From: Thraustochytrium aureum
Lineage: Eukaryota
DNA: 34,974 nucleotides
Assembly: GCA_012862495.1 (NCBI GenBank)
Contig: BLSG01000120.1
Coordinates: 43,984-78,957 of the forward strand
Direction: 5' to 3'
Every line of letters begins with the position of its first letter. Position 1 is the first letter of the stretch. Under the pieces are notes generated by a model that was not told the DNA's origin, searched no databases, and saw only the letters and a list, made by a program, of their open reading frames with translations. Position numbers and translations under genes: made by a program. Of the stretch, positions 20,589 to 34,841 are shown piece after piece.

Positions 20589-21892
20589 ATGGGGGGCGGC
20601 GCCTCCAAGCAAGAAGGGGCGCCGAGTATCGCCAAGCTGTACCAGTTTCGAGAGGCCATCGGGAAAGGCTCATTCGCGACAGTGTACGAGGCAGAGTTGC
20701 TCGAAGAGGGGCGGCAAGACCTCGCGTGGCGAGCTCATTCCAAAAGAATGTCGCTATCAAGGCCATCGACAAGTCCAAGATCCCGCAAGAGGAGATCCCT
20801 CTGCTCCAGGAGGAGTGCAGGATTATGGAGAAGCTCTCGCACCCCAACTGCGTCGGGCTCCTCGAATTCTTCGACGAAGCGGACTTTCTGTACTTGGTCC
20901 TGGAGCTCGTGAGTGGCGGCGAGCTCTTCGACCAGATCGTCGCCAAGGGCTACTTTAACGAGGTCGAGGCCGCGCACGCGACCCAGAAAATCGCCATGGC
21001 GCTCGCATACATGGAAGACAAACGCATTGTGCACCGAGACGTCAAGCCAGAGAACCTCATCTTCGAGTCCAACGACGTCGACGCCAACATCAAGCTCACC
21101 GACTTTGGGCTCGCCAAAGACATCTCAGGGTGCGCCGACGATTGCCCACTGACGGACCCGTGCGGAACGCCAGGCTACGTCGCCCCCGAAATCCTTCGCG
21201 GCCTTCCATACGGCGGCAAGGTTGATTCATGGGCCCTCGGCGTCATCCTGTACATTCTGTTATGCGGCTACCCGCCTTTCTACGCAGAGGACCAGCAAGA
21301 CCTTTTCTCGCTGATCAAGCGTGGCGAGTACAAGTTTGATTCGCCGTACTGGGACGACGTTTCTGACGCTGCCAAGAGCGTTGTGGTCAAACTGTTGCAG
21401 GTGGATCCGGCCAAGCGGCTCACAGCAAAGCAGACGTTACTGGAGCCGTGGGTCGCTGATCCGGAGGCCCAGAACTCGAAGAACTTTGGCAACCACGTCA
21501 TCGAGGGCTTTGAGAAGATTCGCAAAGAAAAGGTCAAGCGCGCCATCCTCAAGATTAGGGCAATGACCCGATTTGGTGCTCTTTCAGAGGCTGCTCGCAG
21601 CTTTACGACAGCTCCAGCCGCAGCGGAGAGTCATGCAACAGCAGCAGCAACAGCAGCAGCAGCAGCAGCAGGAGATGATGCAGCCGGACCAGCTGCCCCG
21701 CAAGACGCAGCTGGCGATGCCTCCGGCGCCGAAGCGTCAGAAGTCGGTGGAGGCGACGACGATGCGGTCGCTCAAATTTCGCAGGGCGGGGTGGCAGTGG
21801 GGACCAACGGTGACGAAGGAGCTGCTCGGGATGCTCCAGGCGGAAAAGAGGCGCAGGCCGAGTCCACACCAGAGGCAAGCAGCTCGAGCTAG
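20589..21892 (+). CDS. Ca2+/calmodulin-dependent protein kinase (CaMK1-like) with N-myristoylation motif; frameshift(s) at 20708-20745
   Basis: Frame 20589 gives MGGGASKQ...IGKGSFATVY (Gly loop). Frame 20726 gives VAIKAID, HRDVKPEN, DFG, CGTPGYVAPE, DSWALGVILYILLCGYPPF and FDSPYWDDVSDAAK. A basic amphipathic CaM-binding-like helix KVKRAILKIRAMTRF follows, then an Ala-rich acidic tail. Confidence 0.93.
21634..21670 (+). repeat. (GCA)n trinucleotide repeat encoding poly-Ala in the kinase tail
   Basis: gcaacagcagcagcaacagcagcagcagcagcagca, read as ATAAATAAAAAA in the kinase frame. Confidence 0.8.
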
Positions 21893-24654: not shown

Positions 24655-25913
24655 TTACAACTTGGCGCCGGCCGTGGGCCTGGCGTGGATGTCGATGATG
24701 AGGCGGCCCTTGTTGCCGCCGTCCTCGCCGAAGAGCTTGAGCAGGGCCCTCGGGGCGTTTTCGAGGCCCGGAATGACGTGCTCGGCGTACTTGATCTTGC
24801 CCTTCTCGAGCCAGGACGCAATGTCGGCGTAGGCCTTTTCGTATTGGTCGGCGTAGTTGAGAAGGATAAAGCCTTCCATGCGCGACGACGTGCTGATAAG
24901 GTTGAGGTACGACGCGGGCCCCGGGGGTAGCGAGGTTGCGTTGTAGCCCGAGATGGCCCCGCAGCTGAGCGCGGAGATGGTCAGCTGCTGCGCAATCCAG
25001 TAGGTCGGACGAGCAAGCAGCCCCGAGGTCTGGCGCGAGCAATGCCACAGCCCAAAACGGGGCGCAGCGCAGCAAGAAGCGAGCAAACACACACGCAAGG
25101 CAGCCAGGCAAGCAGGCGCCGAAGAGCAAGCCGGAAACGCACAGCACAACGCGCGCCTTAAAGTTGATGTGCTTGAGAACGCTGTCCAAGATCCAGCCGC
25201 CGACGTTGTCAAAGTAGACGTCGACGCCGGCAGGGCACGCAGCGCGGAGGTCCTTGCGGAATGCGCGCCCGTCCTCCTTTTTGTAGTCGATCGCCGCGTC
25301 GACGCCGAGCTCTTCAACGAGCCAGGCGCACTTTTCTGCGCCGCCGGCGATCCCGACGACCCGGCAGCCCAGCACGTGCTTGGCGATCTGGCAAACCACC
25401 GAGCCCGTGGCGCCGGCAGCCGCGCTCACCAGCACGGTGTCGCCTTTCTTGGGGCGGCCAACGTCGAGCAAGCCAGAGTATGCAGTGAGACCTGTCCCGC
25501 CGAGGACGCCGAGGTGGACGCGCGGCGAGAACCCGGGGATGGGGCGCAATCTTGCGCAGCGCGGAAGCTTCCGCGATCCCGAACTCGCACCAGCCGAGCT
25601 CGATGCCGCAATTCACCAAGTCGCCTGGGGCCAACTGCGGCGCTTTGGAGGCCAGGACAGTCCCGATCGACGACCCGCGCATGACCGCGCCGAGCGCGAC
25701 CGGCGGTAAGTAGCTTTTCTGGTCGCGCATCCACCCTCGCATCGCGGGGTCCAGGCTCAGAAACTCGTTCCTGACGAGCACCTGCCCAACGGCGAGGTCT
25801 GCCGGGGTTGGCTTTGGCGCCCGCTCGTCCAGCACGAGGTCCTTGCCAGGGACGGGCTTCGCCTCGGGCCGCCTCGCGAGCCGCACGACGCGCATGGAGC
25901 TCGCCTCGTCCAT
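24655..25913 (-). CDS. NADP-dependent oxidoreductase, MDR superfamily (prostaglandin reductase / CurA-YfmJ-like); one intron and a frameshift at 25541-25544
   Basis: Motifs VRLARRP, QVLVRNEFLSLDPAMRGWM...SYLPPV.LGAVMRG, LGVLGGTGLTAYSGL, VLVSAAAGATGSVVCQIAK, GVDVYFDNVGG and, after splicing, RVVLCGAISGYN...RMEGFIL...GLENAPRALLKLF...NKGRL. Confidence 0.93.
24965..25142 (-). other. Spliceosomal GT-AG intron (178 nt) in the oxidoreductase
   Basis: Minus strand: ...gtt gtg ct|GTGCGT...GCTGACcatctccgcgctCAG|c tgc ggg gcc atc. Removal restores the conserved RVVLCGAISGYN. There is a branch-point-like GCTGAC just upstream of the AG. Confidence 0.9.
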
Positions 25914-27645: not shown

Positions 27646-28877
27646 CGGCTGGGTGAGGGGAGGGTAGCAAGTGCGTTGTGCGTTGAAAGGAGCGGCCGTC
27701 GAGTACCTCCGAGCAGCAAGCGCTTGGAAGGAAAACTCAATCGAAGGGAGCCAAGGAGAACAAGAGCATAAAGACAGCACATACAAAGACAGAGAAATGC
27801 CTGGCCACTCGTCCGATCGTAGGCTCCTCTCTCTATCCTCACTCTACAACACCGCACTCTGCCCGGTGCCTTCCTGCACAGGAGGGCGTAAGGTCGCAGA
27901 TTGGCTTCAGCGCACGGGCTCCCATCCCGCCGCTCAAACAAACTGCGGCTGCAATTGCTGNNNNNNNNNNNNNNNNNNNNNNNNNNNNNNNNNNNNNNNN
28001 NNNNNNNNNNNNNNNNNNNNNNNNNNNNNNNNNNNNNNNNNNNNNNNNNNNNNNNNNNNNNNNNNNNNNNNNNNNNNNNNNNNNNNNNNNNNNNNNNNNN
28101 NNNNNNNNNNNNNNNNNNNNNNNNNNNNNNNNNNNNNNNNNNNNNNNNNNNNNNNNNNNNNNNNNNNNNNNNNNNNNNNNNNNNNNNNNNNNNNNNNNNN
28201 NNNNNNNNNNNNNNNNNNNNNNNNNNNNNNNNNNNNNNNNNNNNNNNNNNNNNNNNNNNNNNNNNNNNNNNNNNNNNNNNNNNNNNNNNNNNNNNNNNNN
28301 NNNNNNNNNNNNNNNNNNNNNNNNNNNNNNNNNNNNNNNNNNNNNNNNNNNNNNNNNNNNNNNNNNNNNNNNNNNNNNNNNNNNNNNNNNNNNNNNNNNN
28401 NNNNNNNNNNNNNNNNNNNNNNNNNNNNNNNNNNNNNNNNNNNNNNNNNNNNNNNNNNNNNNNNNNNNNNNNNNNNNNNNNNNNNNNNNNNNNNNNNNNN
28501 NNNNNNNNNNNNNNNNNNNNNNNNNNNNNNNNNNNNNNNNNNNNNNNNNNNNNNNNNNNNNNNNNNNNNNNNNNNNNNNNNNNNNNNNNNNNNNNNNNNN
28601 NNNNNNNNNNNNNNNNNNNCAGCACGATGGGGGTCTGCGTGCCCTCGCGCTCCAGCCCCGCCGCCGATCACTCGGGGACCCTCCGTGACGACACCTTGGC
28701 CGCCCGCGTGCGGTCGCGCGCCGCCCGAGGGCCTGCGCCAGGTCGCGTAGGAGAGAGCGAAGCGGGAGAATGTGGGGCGGCGGGGCGGGACTACGCGCAT
28801 GGAGGCCGCGAGGCCGTCGGGGGGAACGGACGGGCCCGGGGTTATGGGGAACGCATGGTTTTTTCCCCTGGCGCGAT

Positions 28878-30047: not shown

Positions 30048-30999
30048 CGCTCCAGCCCCGGCCGCGGTCTGCTCTCGCTCTCGCTCGCTGCGTTCGACCG
30101 CTTGCGCGCTGATACAGTTGAAAGACGCAACGTTCCTTTCCGGTTGGAAAGCGTCAACGCGCAAAGCGCCTCTTGTGCTCCGACCAGCCTCCTGGATGGC
30201 CCCCAGCCCCAAGCGCGCGAATCCCAGCGCTCGCACGCTGCGCAGCGGCACCGAGTCGAGACTGCGAGCTCCGAGGCTGCCTGCGTTTGTTCGTTCGGTG
30301 CGGCTGCGGTTATCAGCGATCGATCGCTGAATTGTGAGATGAGGGCGCAGAGATCAACGAGTCGTACCTCCGCCAGGCTCACACCAACCCGCGTGTGGAC
30401 CTGCCAGTGTTGTTGTCACAGGCTGGCTCGACGCGACCACGAGCGCGCTCGTGGTCGATGCAGTCCGGCACCCACCGCGGTCCCTCAAAGTCGTGTTTAC
30501 AAACCAGAACGACCCAGCTTCATACCGCGGCACAAAGCGATCGCCTGAAAAGTGAAAAGGACTGCGCCGCGTGCTTGTTTGGCGCCAGTGCCCAGACCAG
30601 AAAGGACCGGCCAACAGCCGCACTGTTGCTCGGGCGGGCGCGCCGTGGGCTCCGCGTGATCGACTCACGCTACCGTAGCTCGCCACTTGACACGTCTTGA
30701 CATGTCTTTCTTGATCTTGAAAGAATTCGCGATGCATGTCCAACGGCCCTCTGGCGGTCCGAAAGCTTCGAGTGCGCGCGCTCATCATCACAGCAGCAGC
30801 GCTGCAGACTCGCAGATAGAAGCACAGGGCCATCGCGGTCCCTCGTGAGCTTTGTGCCTCTTGCGAGCCGTGACGAAAGGCTCGGACCCGAGCGCCGCCT
30901 TGGGCCGCCTTGCACCGCCTTGGACCAGCACGACGCGGTCGGTCCACTCGGACGCTCTCCGGAGACCGCTTCGGCACTCGTTGGCGTCGAACGCTGACG

Positions 31000-31879
31000 A
31001 TGAGTCTGTCGCGCGAGACCCAAGCGCTGGTGGCGCGGCTCCAGCAACGCAATTACAATCAGAGCGGCGTGGAGCGGGTGCTCGCGCAGGCGCGGGAAGC
31101 GCGACTGCGGTCGCTTCCAAGGGATCATGCGGAGCGAAACTTGCTCGGGCGCGCGGCAACCGAGGACAACCCTGACAGGAGACCGTGGGGCGCGCGGCCG
31201 ACTGACGAGCTTGAAGATGCCAAGCAAGCCAGAGCGCGAACACAGCGCGTGCGAGCACCGACTGTGAAGCCCAAGGCNNNNNNNNNNNNNNNNNNNNNNN
31301 NNNNNNNNNNNNNNNNNNNNNNNNNNNNNNNNNNNNNNNNNNNNNNNNNNNNNNNNNNNNNNNNNNNNNNNNNNNNNNAGGACGGCGGCACGCCAGCGAG
31401 ATCGTCGCAAAGGCGCAAGCCGAGACGGCGCAAGAGAGAGCTCGAGGTCCCCCGCTGACCCGGGGCTCGCAAGGTCGAAACCAGGAGATGGAGAAGACGA
31501 AGCTGCAGCTCAACTTTCAATTCAGGGGCGGCAAAGCCCTGCCCGAGGCCGGGTTGCCCGGCGCGTCTTGCGGGCAGGTCCCTCTCAGTTTAATAACGCG
31601 GCAGTCGGGGGCGCACCCCCGTGGGCTTGATGAAAACGGGCAGCCCGGGGACGCTCGGCGCGAGGCCCTCAAGCGGCGCGAGCGGCGCGCGCGAATCAAA
31701 GAACTGGAGAGTTCGTTTGACGAGGTGATGCGGCTTATTGAAGGTACCCGCGCGCAGCTTGGCGCTGCGCGGGGCGCCAAGCCGATCGCGGACCTCCGTG
31801 CCGAGCTGGCCTTGCTGCTTGAAGAGTCCAAAACGTAGACCAGCTCATCCAGGCCGAGCAGGCGGACGGGGCGCGCTAG
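31000..31879 (+). CDS. UPF0193 / EVG1 (C22orf23)-like protein; gap 31278-31378 and a probable frameshift at 31830-31833
   Basis: MSLSRETQALV...SLP, RNQEMEKTKLQLNFQFRG and SFDEVMRLIE...RAELALLLEE resemble the three conserved UPF0193 blocks (ETQELL..LP; R.LEKEK.RLQN.F..G; RFEEL..EI.ER...EI...LREME.ID). The stop is at 31838 as read. Adding one A gives ...SKNVDQLIQAEQADGAR* ending at 31879. Confidence 0.6.
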
Positions 31880-32233
31880 GTGTGGCAGCCGCGTGGTGGC
31901 AGGGAAGTCGACGGCCTACGCGCAGATGGCGCACGGAATGCAACTTTCTTGGCCCAGTAACACCAAGGAGGATCGACCCGTAGTAGCCAACCCAGTAACA
32001 ACATGGATGGAGTTTATCCAGAAAAGAAGAAGATAGAACACAACAGATATTGCGCGCACCGCACCAGCGCAAGGTCCCCTGCACCACACAAGTAGCTAGT
32101 AGAGGTTGATGATGAGCAGCTCCCCACGTGAGTACTCCACATAGGCAGGTAGGCCTGTTGGAGAAAGTGAAAAAAACACACCCAATTGTTCCCGCAGCGC
32201 TCAGTCACAGCGCCCCGTTTCCCCGACAGCCCG

Positions 32234-34841
32234 TCAGCGGACCGAGCACCGCTCGATCAAGGCCATCTCGGCAGTGTCAACCGCGGTGCCGTTCAGGTCC
32301 ATGCCAGTCTCAACCCAGTGGCGGCGCAGGTCGGTGAGCGACCAAATGGCTCCACCAAGAGCAACCGGGTCTGCCACGGGATTACCAAGCATGTCGGTCA
32401 GGTCGGCATCTGCGAGACGCGAGCCCTTTCGCAAACGCGACCAGGACGCGAGGTGCTCTTCCGCAAACTCGAGGCGCAGTTGACGCTGCCACTCTGGCCA
32501 GGCGAGGAGCCACTTTTCGAAGGCCTGGTCGGAGATGCCCAGCGCCTCCTTCCTGCACCGCGAGATCTCGCTGTCTGTGACGTTGATGTAGGTGGGAAAG
32601 TTCATGGCGAGCGCCGAGCAAGGCAGGCCAAGCTCCTCGCGAAGCGCAATCTCAAATCGCAGGTACACGCAGACGTCGTCGACAAACTTGAGCGAGGAAA
32701 TCTTCTTCTCGACGTGGCGGTGCACGACGTCGAGACGCATCACGCCGAGACCAAGTTTGCGGAGCTTGGCTCGGTCGCCGCGCGCTCGCGCGGCCTCCAC
32801 CACCACGTTCATCTGGTTGATGGCCCAGATCGGCTTGTCGCTGCAAGCGTCGACAGAGTCGACCATCCGCGTCACGAGCTCGCCGCGCGCAAACTCGTCA
32901 TGGCAAACGAGCTCGATGACCTCGAACACGCGNNNNNNNNNNNNNNNNNNNNNNNNNNNNNNNNNNNNNNNNNNNNNNNNNNNNNNNNNNNNNNNNNNNN
33001 NNNNNNNNNNNNNNNNNNNNNNNNNNNNNNNNNNNNNNNNNNNNNNNNNNNNNNNNNNNNNNNNNNNNNNNNNNNNNNNNNGCCGAGCGAGGCCCTCCTG
33101 CGTCTCTGCGCGCTGAAAGTCCTTGGCGCGGATCAGCTTGTCAGAAACAAGAGCACGCCACGCTCAGACGAGCGGTCCACGGCCGCCGCGAGGTCGTTGG
33201 CGGCAGCGGCCTCCTTGCCGAGTCCGCTCTTGATCGCCCAAAACTCTGTGGCCTCCCCGAGCGTCTCAAACTCGATCTCGCCCTCCCCACGGGGCAGCTG
33301 GCTGTCGTGGCGCACGCGGGACAGGACAAACCGCAGGTTTGCCGGCTGCTCGTCGCGCAGCCACTCGAGCTCGGTCTCCGAGATGCCCGATCCGCCCAAG
33401 TAAATGGTGTGCGGCGGCCCGCCTGCGCGCGCAGCGGGCCACTCGAGGATGCGGGAGCCCAGCGTCCGAAGCGACGTGCACCCTTCCAGGTACAAGTCGC
33501 CGCCAACGAAGAACTCGGTGGACTCGGGCAGCGCGGTGAGCCGCACGCAGCCGGTCAGATTCAGGTACTTGCCGACGGAGAGGTTCGCTGGGAGCGCTAC
33601 CAGCGCCTCGCAGCCTTTGAGCTCAACCGACCCTTTGACCTTGATATGCTCGGGGAGCCGCACGAGAGCGGTGCACCCAAAGCAGTTCAGGCCCTGCCCG
33701 AGCCGCTCCCATTGGCCGATCATCTCGAGCGCGGCGCACCGCCTCGCGCGAGCGTGCCCGTGATCCGCCAGCCGGCCGGAATGTGCGTCAGCGCGGGGCA
33801 GCCGTCCAGCGTGACGTTGCCGCCGCAATTCAGCTTGGGCGGAGCTCGTGCAGCATGGAGCAGTCGCTTGCGAGGAGCGAGCCGCCAACGTGCAACTCGC
33901 CGCCGAGCGACTCGAGCGAGACGCTCCCTCGCACGTCCAGGCTTCCATTGCACTTGAAGCGCGACGGCAGCGCCGTGAGGCGCGGGCATTCGCGCGCAAG
34001 CAGCGACCCGCCGACCTTCAGGTCCTCCCCGAGCGACTCGAGCCGCGCGCAGCCTGTTACGTCGAGGCTTCCATGGCACTGGAATTGCGCAGGGAGCTCT
34101 ACAATCGGGGCCCCGCTGAGGTCGACGTCGCCTTCAAACTCGACCTGCTCGGGGACGTCTCGAGGCCTGCCGCAACCTTTCGAAGCTCACCAGAGGCTCG
34201 GCGATGATAAGGCGCGGGTTCGTGTCCATGTCGCGCACCACAAACCTGCAGTACCGAAGCAAGAGCGAGCCGACCGCGGCGCGCGCGTTGCGCGCAATGC
34301 CGAGCTCGCCGCGGTTCGCGGTCGCCGAGGCCACGCCAGGCCGGAGTTGGCTTCCGCTCGTCCATCGGACGATAATGTCGCGCGCCGCGCGCCGCTCGCT
34401 CGCGGTGGTGTTGCGCAGCTGAAAGGCCTGCGCGCGCAGCCGTGTCGAGGCGTCCCGCTTGACGCGGTTGCGCATCCGGGTCGGGTCGTTGGCCGTCTGC
34501 CGCTTGTTCTCGTCGTACTTTTCGCCGAGCGAGGTCATCATCATCGGGATCTTGCTTGGGGACGGAAGCATCGCTCGGGACGGCATAGTCGAGGGCAGCG
34601 TGGCTGCCAGCGCGCTGCGCGCCTGTCTCGCTTGCGGACCCAGGCGGTTCGATATTGCGGAAGCTGGGTTTACGGCTCGAAGGCCATCCAGCGACAAATT
34701 GGGCGCCCATCTGGCCACCGCGCGAGAGCTCGCACTGCGCCCGAGCCCAGGTCGCGTTGCTTGGCCGGCCGCGGCTGGTTCTTCGTCCGTGGCTTCAGAA
34801 AGCGCGCGGCTCGCGCGAGGCATCGTCTGCTGGCGCTCCAT
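32234..34841 (-). CDS. LRR + NEL (IpaH/SspH-type novel E3 ubiquitin ligase) protein with a C-terminal U-box-like segment; at least 4 frameshifts and one gap
   Basis: Reconstructed from ORFs 34134..34841, 33720..34079, 33133..33999 and 32234..32929 plus manual frames. It has about 12 21-aa LRRs (consensus L.VGG.L.L.GC..L..LP). These are followed by FLTKLIRAKDF...LAR/RVFEVIEL...DACSDKPIWAINQM...LRKLGLGVMRLDVV...SLKFVDDVCVYLRFEIALREELGLP...MNFP...VTDSEI...FEKWLLAWPEWQRQLR, collinear with the NEL domain. Confidence 0.82.

Follow-up and report, generated by a model that had tools for sequence, protein, structure and literature searches.

The window, by which we mean the whole stretch of 34,974 nucleotides from Thraustochytrium aureum analysed here, carries near its end a minus-strand gene for a protein made of LRRs, a NEL catalytic domain and a C-terminal domain with a predicted U-box fold (Table 1). 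A preliminary description of this DNA had claimed one gene with LRRs followed by NEL, and the Pfam NEL match and the matches to solved NEL chains, which lie downstream of the repeats, agree with this order.

Table 1. Features of the LRR-NEL-U-box gene (positions in the window)
Feature	Position	Strand	Remark
Whole LRR-NEL-U-box gene	32234..34841	-	frame arithmetic gives about 820 codons; breaks confined to this assembly
N-terminal ~220 residues	34179..34841	-	low-complexity region and then, by eye, a probable helical cap ahead of the LRRs
LRRs, ~11 of ~21 residues (VxGxLxLxxCxxLxxLP type), and capping repeat	33350..34156	-	read in three pieces
NEL catalytic domain	32447..33270	-	first helices upstream of the N run
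Run of 149 N within the NEL domain	32933..33081		false scaffold gap; contigs of 4/4 runs join directly across
Catalytic Cys-x-Asp	32837..32845	-	aligns to the catalytic Cys of solved NELs
Second catalytic Asp (IpaH9.8 Asp397 equivalent)	32678..32680	-	by alignment, piece residue 85
U-box-fold C-terminal domain, predicted	32237..32410	-	would replace the bacterial E2~Ub-binding thumb
Probable 3' UTR	32093..32233	-	two haplotypes among RNA-run contigs

Integrity and surroundings of the gene

In the window the reading frame is broken five times, near positions 33140, 33750, 33840, 34155, and 34177. The preliminary description was right that frames must be joined, but it was silent on the N run within the gene. 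In Logan contigs of other runs these breaks are missing in 4, 4, 3, 3, and 2 of 4 runs, respectively, most of the uncounted runs having no coverage at the break. As contigs from other runs do not contain them, the frame breaks and the N run are assembly errors; the neighbouring kinase gene shows the same type of error. Introns behind the breaks could be ruled out, as the RNA-run contigs skip nothing in the gene except the N run.

Contigs of RNA runs cover the gene. All of these RNA contigs come from a single study with three runs, and the DNA run may be the source of the window assembly. Of the variant sites listed, 13 of 17 are synonymous compared with an expected fraction of 0.255 (p = 1.6e-5), and in the N-terminal frame five synonymous sites stand against two non-synonymous ones. 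These data support a real, nuclear and transcribed gene under purifying selection. A dead pseudogene, which had been named as a possible outcome, is not what we find, given the breaks missing from other runs, the RNA contigs and the synonymous excess.

The neighbouring open reading frame ends at position 31838, which leaves 396 bp without any N up to the NEL stop codon, as expected from the claimed distance of 350–400 bp to a eukaryotic gene. The genes WDR35, CFAP65, PEX11 and TTL mark the window as plainly eukaryotic, but the label "EVG1-like" given to this neighbour has no Pfam match at E ≤ 1; the RNA-run contigs have no coverage of positions 30200–31800. The codon style was said to resemble that of the neighbours, and indeed GC3 is 0.79–0.86 in the four pieces of the gene and 0.74–0.84 in four neighbours. 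Among the contigs of other runs, none joins the gene and its neighbour on a single contig. The eukaryotic neighbours, a spliced neighbour transcript and the thraustochytrid relatives argue against a bacterial gene with a type III-secreted product.

Domains of the encoded protein

The NEL searches were carried out with the NEL half of the gene (32237–32932, minus strand). This query matches the Pfam NEL profile PF14496 with E = 1.2e-21 and 77.5 bits (cut-off 24) over profile positions 52–222 of 223, and 12 solved chains of IpaH, SspH, and SlrP with E values from 2e-10 to 2e-8. The cysteine codon is found at 32843–32845 as claimed; the residue aligns with the catalytic cysteine and the aspartate at +2 is retained. 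Another aspartate, at piece residue 85, aligns with the IpaH9.8 aspartate 60 residues past the cysteine, which is the spacing between the cysteine and Asp397 (for the roles of the NEL catalytic residues we follow PMC9320238). The cysteine and Asp+2 are present in 81/81 rows of the protist clade and 67/67 rows of clade 2 (see below) that cover them, and the second aspartate is found in 22 of 22 members in one alignment and in at least 90% of 92 in another. A predicted model of the NEL half (pLDDT 96.9, pTM 0.90) gave a superposition of the kind proposed in the preliminary description: residues 1–162 align with SspH1 463–629 (Z 10.8, rmsd 4.5, 161 residues), the four best structural matches are all NEL chains (Z 9.9–10.8, rmsd 4.4–4.7, 152–161 residues) and the top nine Foldseek rows are all NELs.

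Of the approximately 12 LRRs reported before, we count by eye about 11 and a capping repeat. The repeats are 20–23 residues long by eye, with a computed spacing of 20–21, and are not of the LPX type. In fact the best PDB matches of the LRR piece are the LRRs of plant NLRs, not of IpaH. The motif VxGxLxL occurs at least twice in none of 26 thumb-bearing NELs, in 24 of 34 clade-2 proteins and in 19 of 39 protist proteins. For the N-terminal piece there is no match in Pfam or among the relatives searched, and no hydrophobic signal peptide is seen in it by eye. Its probable helical cap resembles that of YopM and IpaH by eye only.

The preliminary description overlooked the C-terminus, whose last ~58 residues are modelled as a U-box fold, a U-box/RING fold with no zinc ligands. 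Model residues 175–232 (pLDDT >90) superpose on U-box and RING domains, with Prp19 (Z 5.5, rmsd 2.2, 52 residues aligned) and Ufd2 (Z 5.1) as examples, and most rows down to rank 50 belong to these folds; a Z of about 5 is expected for a domain of 55 residues and is below the tool's caution level of 8. Foldseek finds the U-boxes of E4B, LubX, and Prp19 with probabilities of 0.80–0.97 but with E values of 0.35–1.7. The model was built from an alignment with canonical U-box tails, which may bias it toward this fold. Profiles of the family point in the same direction, as the clade-2 profile matches the U-box of LubX (E = 6.5e-6) and Prp19 (E = 1.3e-3) and a mixed-family profile matches Prp19 (E = 7e-4) and E4A (E = 4.9e-3). 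The structural match to NEL ends at SspH1 residue 629, and no helical E2~Ub thumb but the U-box fold comes next. According to PMC12506513 the SspH1 thumb comprises residues 623–697, therefore the U-box starts where the thumb would. Thus, the helical E2-binding thumb of IpaH and SspH is predicted to be replaced by a U-box fold.

In the protist clade this U-box is degenerate. Neither the window protein nor 22 members of family A1 match the Pfam U-box profiles, and the U-box start Cx[IF]T is missing in 83 of 83 protist rows. Among the tails that could be pattern-matched (61 of the 83 protist rows and 57 of the 67 clade-2 rows), the loop-2 proline is present in 2/61 protist versus 46/57 clade-2 tails and the linchpin Arg/Lys in 0/61 versus 26/57, at positions which we assigned by motif. 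The ability to bind an E2 may therewith have been lost. The tail itself is retained in nearly all full-length members with invariant positions of its own, and what we take by eye to be the loop-1 E2-contact position keeps a hydrophobic residue.

Relatives and phylogeny

The gene is one of an expanded family in labyrinthulomycetes that includes at least ten Hondaea-named proteins and has an invariant CxD. In our profile search, with 150 of 1970 matches listed, the named eukaryotes among the matches listed are thraustochytrids and records labelled Durusdinium. Across the family the N-terminal part may be LRR, SPRY, ARM, or SAM. Relatives are found on contigs from Hondaea that reach 939 kb, Pfam NEL is precomputed on Hondaea records, and an independent homologue (L079) is flanked by ALG6/8 and SPO11/TOP6A genes. 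The 25 pattern matches in viral contigs contain no relative. Phage records gave a single weak match, in an unannotated record of 1.9 kb, with 28% over 56% of the query. In the ESM Atlas neither the window piece nor P0133 has an entry at ≥0.9, a result that says nothing either way.

The nearest kin are LRR-NEL-U-box proteins. Those with a named organism are bacterial (Rhabdochlamydia and a Verrucomicrobiae MAG), an organism being named for one of the 12 clade-2 clusters looked up. In trees of the NEL core only, all NELs that carry a U-box group together (100/96), and the protist clade within them has full support (100/100). The protist and bacterial U-box groups are sisters in one tree, and in the other the protists are nested (86/76), with the sister arrangement not rejected (AU p = 0.535); the root was placed on the enterobacterial NELs and not inferred. 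The phylogeny that had been suggested thus has a sister group which is bacterial where named, but grouping of the protists with IpaH and SspH is rejected (AU p = 0.0009). As to the proposed horizontally acquired, domesticated effector, bacterial origin is the simplest reading, not however as a one-off acquisition of an IpaH-type gene but as an old and expanded labyrinthulomycete family.

The closest counterparts in architecture are the bacterial LRR-NEL-U-box proteins (Candidatus Rhabdochlamydia MGR3912428.1 and loci L001–L007 from Rhabdochlamydiaceae, Verrucomicrobiae and bacterial MAGs), which have the same three parts and the same LRR type but a canonical U-box, and are 21–32% identical to the window's piece. 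With the effectors IpaH of Shigella, SspH1, SspH2 and SlrP of Salmonella and NopM of rhizobia, the protist protein shares the NEL fold, Cys-x-Asp with the second aspartate and the order LRR-linker-NEL, whereas it is encoded by a nuclear eukaryotic gene, has 21-residue VxGxLxLxxC repeats instead of LPX repeats and a predicted U-box in place of the helical thumb. The chlamydial expansion of RING/U-box-LRR proteins represented by Neochlamydia NEX1b is different in that the U-box is N-terminal, and NEL or IpaH does not occur in the main text of that report (PMC4209131).

In the literature NEL ligases are confined to bacteria that are pathogens or symbionts. Our literature search of open main texts, beyond which domain tables of genome papers and subscription journals may list the family, found no description of eukaryotic NELs of the labyrinthulomycete kind or of a NEL-U-box fusion, nor of the bacterial LRR-NEL-U-box proteins; the sole eukaryotic mention found concerns algal NLR-like genes reportedly labelled NEL-like (PMC7145615). 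A conserved and expressed eukaryotic NEL family would mean that a host has kept and multiplied an effector enzyme within its own ubiquitin system.

Proposed mechanism and competing explanations

We suggest, with a probability of roughly 70%, that the LRR-NEL-U-box protein works as a hybrid ubiquitin ligase derived from a bacterial effector, in which an E2 docked at the U-box feeds the NEL cysteine. An E2~ubiquitin of the cell itself would bind to the predicted U-box and hand its ubiquitin to the NEL cysteine, where it would form a thioester. With the aid of the two aspartates the ubiquitin would then pass to a lysine on a protein that the LRRs hold and presumably choose, all of this probably in the cytosol. 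The family would go back to a single old transfer from a host-associated bacterium with an LRR-NEL-U-box effector, after which the gene would have been duplicated and its N-terminal binding domain exchanged (LRR, SPRY, ARM, SAM).

Ordinary U-box ligases have no thioester step. The likeness to the U-box E3s (Prp19, Ufd2/E4B, CHIP and Legionella LubX) lies in the predicted fold of the last 58 residues and in the family-profile matches, whereas the protist clade is without the zinc-free CPIT-like start, the loop-2 proline and the linchpin and is fused to a domain with a catalytic cysteine. In the RBR ligases (HHARI, Parkin) and the RING-Cys-relay ligase MYCBP2, too, an E2 docked on a RING fold supplies a catalytic cysteine, which is the logic proposed here. 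Their catalytic domain is not homologous, and the protist protein, in which no RING1-IBR-RING2 domains are found with Pfam, has no IBR and RING2 and carries the predicted dock C-terminal to the cysteine. The loss of the linchpin in the protist tails fits a docked E2 that feeds the NEL cysteine; RBR RING1, which feeds a catalytic cysteine, is also without it (PMC5462532). We are slightly inclined to go further and regard these proteins as an E3 class of the labyrinthulomycetes, a U-box/NEL-Cys hybrid from the effector of a bacterial symbiont that expanded into substrate sensors, the eukaryotic E2 dock having replaced the thumb and then been retuned by linchpin loss to feed the cysteine, in parallel to the RBR ligases but with unrelated parts. 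It would be a further, independent case in which a RING-fold dock supplies a catalytic cysteine. The presentation of E2~Ub to the NEL cysteine has not been structurally captured according to PMC12506513, and a natural swap of thumb for U-box bears on this step. With an E2 dock whose interface is well known, as proposed here, this step would lend itself to direct testing. The protein is also a candidate modular ligase scaffold, thraustochytrids being industrially used and genetically tractable.

The role of the U-box could be different. The Prp19 U-box dimerises, and the protist domain might likewise be a structural cap or a dimerisation module of a Cys-dependent NEL ligase that binds E2~Ub elsewhere. 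The loss of the loop-2 proline in 59/61 tails and of the Cx[IF]T start in all rows, the missing Pfam match and a Prp19 dimer entry as the best U-box structural match are what one would expect from this. We nevertheless consider it unlikely, because the thumb as the known E2~Ub site is gone and a replacement is therefore needed, and because of the retained tail with its own invariant positions and the hydrophobic residue presumably facing the E2. Conversely, the U-box could be an active RING-type ligase that passes ubiquitin from the E2 straight to the substrate, with NEL as a scaffold and a vestigial cysteine. U-box domains are normally sufficient as E3 modules and many clade-2 tails keep the proline and the linchpin; the invariance of the cysteine and Asp+2 in 148/148 rows, together with the linchpin gone from 61/61 protist tails, makes this very unlikely.

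Other explanations concern the origin and the use of the gene. NEL could have been joined to the U-box in a eukaryote, or be of eukaryotic origin and have survived in labyrinthulomycetes, from which bacteria took it. In its favour, the U-box is a module of eukaryotes, and a sister topology is the best in one tree and is not rejected; the root, moreover, was imposed. This direction appears to us improbable, slightly more so than the structural cap, in view of the restriction of named eukaryotes among the matches listed to thraustochytrids and Durusdinium-labelled records, the wide NEL diversity in bacteria, the more canonical U-boxes of the bacterial tails, and the 21-residue LRR type common to protist and clade-2 proteins and found in 0/26 thumb-bearing NELs. 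That the gene is dead, or that assembly fused it chimerically with bacterial DNA, as the five frame breaks, the N run and the lack of a single contig over gene and neighbour could indicate, has next to no probability left, being already contradicted by the contigs of the other runs; the like error in the kinase gene, the RNA contigs, the synonymous excess, the relatives on long Hondaea contigs and those among eukaryotic genes also speak against it. Effector ancestry, and reports that some labyrinthulomycetes eat living diatoms or infect seagrass and clams, might suggest that the protist delivers the ligases into prey or host cells via the ectoplasmic net. We give this offensive role little credence, as the N-terminus is without a visible hydrophobic signal peptide, the long SPRY, SAM, and ARM fusions look cytosolic and a route of delivery is not known. 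The conserved orthologue pairs across genomes suit stable cellular roles equally well as defence.

NEL domain and C-terminal tail

The NEL piece of the minus-strand gene matches the Pfam NEL profile (E 1.2e-21), as the preliminary description had proposed, and 12 solved IpaH, SspH and SlrP chains (E 2e-10 to 2e-8). The cysteine which it had singled out aligns with the catalytic cysteine, and the aspartate at Cys+2 and a second aspartate align with two aspartates of IpaH9.8, both named as important in the accessible part of a review (PMC9320238). About 12 LRRs are indeed found upstream, spread over three frames. The observation of an LRR-NEL gene in this protist window is therefore real.

Beyond the WxxW motif the family has a conserved tail of ∼60 residues, which the preliminary description had overlooked. 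A structure model of the NEL piece from a 92-row alignment (pLDDT 96.9, pTM 0.90) comprises two parts. Upon superposition, a check which had been proposed, residues 1–162 match NEL domains (SspH1 463–629, Z 10.8, rmsd 4.5) and residues 175–232 match the U-box/RING domains of Prp19 (Z 5.5, rmsd 2.2), Ufd2 (Z 5.1), and E4B, LubX and CHIP (Z 4.5–4.8); Foldseek agrees at weak E-values. The E2~Ub-binding thumb of SspH1 comprises residues 623–697, according to the accessible part of PMC12506513, and the NEL match ends at 629. Thus, the predicted U-box occupies the place of the thumb. In group 2, the nearest LRR-NEL-U-box proteins, the U-box is canonical and the profile matches LubX (E 6.5e-6) and Prp19 (1.3e-3); the window's own tail gave no Pfam U-box match. 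The U-box fold of this tail is a prediction with middling Z scores, made from an alignment that contained canonical tails.

Integrity, expression and surroundings of the gene

The gene is interrupted by five frame breaks (near 33140, 33750, 33840, 34155 and 34177) and by a run of 149 N, absent from the preliminary description, across which contigs join directly in 4/4 runs. These are Logan contigs from a DNA run, X1, which may be the source of the assembly, and from three runs of one other study, X2–X4. At the five breaks they differ from the window in 4, 4, 3, 3 and 2 of the four runs, most of the uncounted runs being without cover at the place and one contig stopping at the last break. As the contig comparison reveals the same error type in the neighbouring kinase gene, we regard the breaks as a property of the assembly, and frame breaks of this assembly should not be taken for pseudogenes. 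Other faults are a 101-N run at 31278–31378, where the DNA run has 33 bases, and short erroneous indels at 20713, 20742 and 24647 in neighbouring genes.

By frame arithmetic only, the gene fits a single reading frame of some 820 codons. Runs X2 and X4 lack the intron of the dehydrogenase-like gene (see table) and therefore represent spliced RNA of the same organism; contigs of X2–X4 extend over the NEL gene and what is probably its 3′ UTR. Among the 17 variant sites listed in coding pieces (the variant table holds 12 further rows), 13 are synonymous, where 25.5% would be expected (p 1.6e-5). The window gene is intact and expressed. At 32463–32500 and 32811–32839, contigs from the RNA runs match short conserved NEL stretches and then diverge from the window; judged by eye, they derive from a second expressed gene of the family, which has a CxD motif of its own.

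The 35-kb scaffold contains 12 N runs (4234 bases) and has 64% GC outside them. Its eukaryotic genes encode TTL, PEX11, CFAP65, a protein kinase, an SH3 protein, an amino-acid transporter, a TLC-domain protein and WDR35. For the WDR35 piece, the top named relative among 7990 candidates scored comes from Mucochytrium quahogii (70% identity; next named 44–56%), which makes a labyrinthulomycete other than this species the most likely source of the window. The preliminary description had placed a eukaryotic neighbour 350–400 bp away, and the distance is 396 bp with no N between. The noted likeness in codon style also holds, with GC3 of 0.79–0.86 for the gene and 0.74–0.84 for four neighbours, while Pfam gave no support to the EVG1-like label. 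None of the run contigs was found to carry both gene and neighbour; X1 depth is continuous between them. Just beyond the transporter stop, higher-depth RNA-run contigs (27672–27960) extend into an N gap and represent a long UTR or an additional gene.

Features of the window
Feature	Position	Strand	Remarks
LRR-NEL-U-box gene	32234-34841	-	
NEL piece	32237-32932	-	
Catalytic Cys codon	32843-32845	-	
Second Asp codon	32678-32680	-	
Neighbour ORF called EVG1-like	30874-31838	+	two pieces, no Pfam match at E<=1; no RNA contig cover
Intron, 178 bases, GT-AG	24965-25142	-	zinc-binding-dehydrogenase-like gene; spliced in two RNA runs (X2, X4)
Open frame, 293 codons	18143-19024	+	no Pfam match

Proposed ubiquitin transfer and classification

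The catalytic cysteine and Asp+2 are kept in all rows with cover at these positions, both in the protist group (81/81) and in group 2 (67/67). The U-box activation residues have fared differently in the two groups: the loop-2 proline is present in 2/61 protist versus 46/57 group-2 tails and the linchpin Arg/Lys in 0/61 versus 26/57, counting pattern-matched tails only (22 protist and 10 group-2 tails fall outside the pattern). We suggest that the predicted U-box would take up E2~Ub and that ubiquitin would then move to the NEL cysteine and onto a substrate held by the LRRs. By analogy to RBR RING1 domains, for which the accessible part of PMC5462532 provides the linchpin comparison, a U-box devoid of the linchpin would not lock the closed conformation for direct lysine transfer. 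The main rival to this relay is that the degenerate U-box has lost E2 binding. Alternatively, the protein could be a plain U-box ligase, but the invariance of the cysteine while the RING-type activation residues have decayed argues against this.

The preliminary description had assigned the protein to the bacterial effector type. In contrast to the IpaH-type family the window protein has neither thumb nor LPX repeats nor bacterial secretion, and inspection by eye showed no signal peptide. Since these three defining features fail, we file this predicted NEL-type ligase as a variant of the NEL superfamily and not as an IpaH-type member. Reviews of 2022 and 2026 present NELs as bacterial in their accessible parts (PMC9320238, PMC13720258), and those of PMC12591485, PMC4209131, PMC6387759 and PMC3482391 make no mention of a NEL-U-box fusion. 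Some algal NLR-like genes carry a NEL-like label (PMC7145615, accessible part). In openly accessible main texts we found no published account of this NEL-U-box family.

Protist family and bacterial relatives

Searching with the NEL piece yielded 26 longer proteins with 38–56% identity, and a profile search 1970 representatives at E<=1e-3 (212 at 1e-30). The 150 matches listed of these 1970 fall into two domain groups, 83 rows including the window (group 1) and 67 others (group 2). Named members of group 1 are 10 Hondaea fermentalgiana proteins, one from Thraustochytrium sp. LLF1b and further MMETSP transcripts, one with a fungal taxid that is probably a transposed Aurantiochytrium limacinum taxid. 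Group 1 also holds records filed under the dinoflagellate Durusdinium trenchii (P0004, P0062; same accession series P0019, P0029, P0073, P0090) on contigs of 6–28 kb; these records could stem from thraustochytrid DNA contaminating that assembly or represent another lineage of eukaryotes. A metagenomic homologue is flanked by ALG6/8 and SPO11/TOP6A genes.

The N-terminal parts of the group-1 proteins scanned contain LRRs in most cases, SPRY in 9, ARM in at least 3 and SAM in 2. Such varied sensor domains would be consistent with a defence role, and the closely paired proteins of Hondaea and other genomes (P0006/P0012, P0005/P0027, P0007/P0028, P0024/P0035) with stable housekeeping roles. Some members have C-terminal extras (tubulin, LSM, PCI) that look like the result of merged gene models. 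One member, P0150, has by eye a duplicated U-box-like tail at its end, and P0154 an AAA ATPase domain N-terminal to NEL and tail.

Group 2 is, for part of the group, bacterial: the organism is named for 1/12 clusters looked up, P0125 being a Ca. Rhabdochlamydia protein. The 152 confirmed matches of a genome scan were reduced to 78 loci. Seven of these loci (L001–L007; Rhabdochlamydiaceae, Verrucomicrobiae and other bacterial MAGs) carry the U-box tail, and the helical thumb is found in IpaH-, NopM- and Burkholderiales-type loci. The bacterial LRR-NEL-U-box architecture seems to be undescribed in its own right.

Trees were computed from the NEL core, leaving out tail and thumb, with an imposed root. 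In a 107-row tree (40/83 of group 1, 34/67 of group 2, 33 locus ORFs; bootstraps not settled) 39/40 protist rows form one clade (100/100), sister to 40 U-box rows (96/89). A second tree, of 47 rows and without four long branches, places all NELs that bear a U-box in a single group (100/96) within the thumb-bearing NELs, and the protists are weakly nested (86/76). The AU test gave p 0.535 for protists as sister to versus nested in the U-box rows; a grouping with IpaH/SspH/Yersinia-type NELs was rejected (p 0.0009). A 21-residue LRR motif is common to protist and group-2 proteins and absent in 26/26 thumb NELs. The simplest reading would be a single ancient transfer to protists from a host-associated bacterium.

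A Verrucomicrobiae MAG carries three tandem LRR-NEL-U-box genes (L004:431-6200), all with canonical U-box tails. The NEL of L008:514-3760 trees within the U-box group and has a different C-terminal region of ∼350 residues. Chlamydial-type NELs with a short helical C-terminus (L011, L013, L033, L035, L038, L076) are sister to all U-box-bearing NELs. A 199-residue ‘LRR’ chain, PDB 8z5u, ranks first among non-NEL matches of the 21-residue repeat in one profile search (E 1e-22) and second in another (8e-24).
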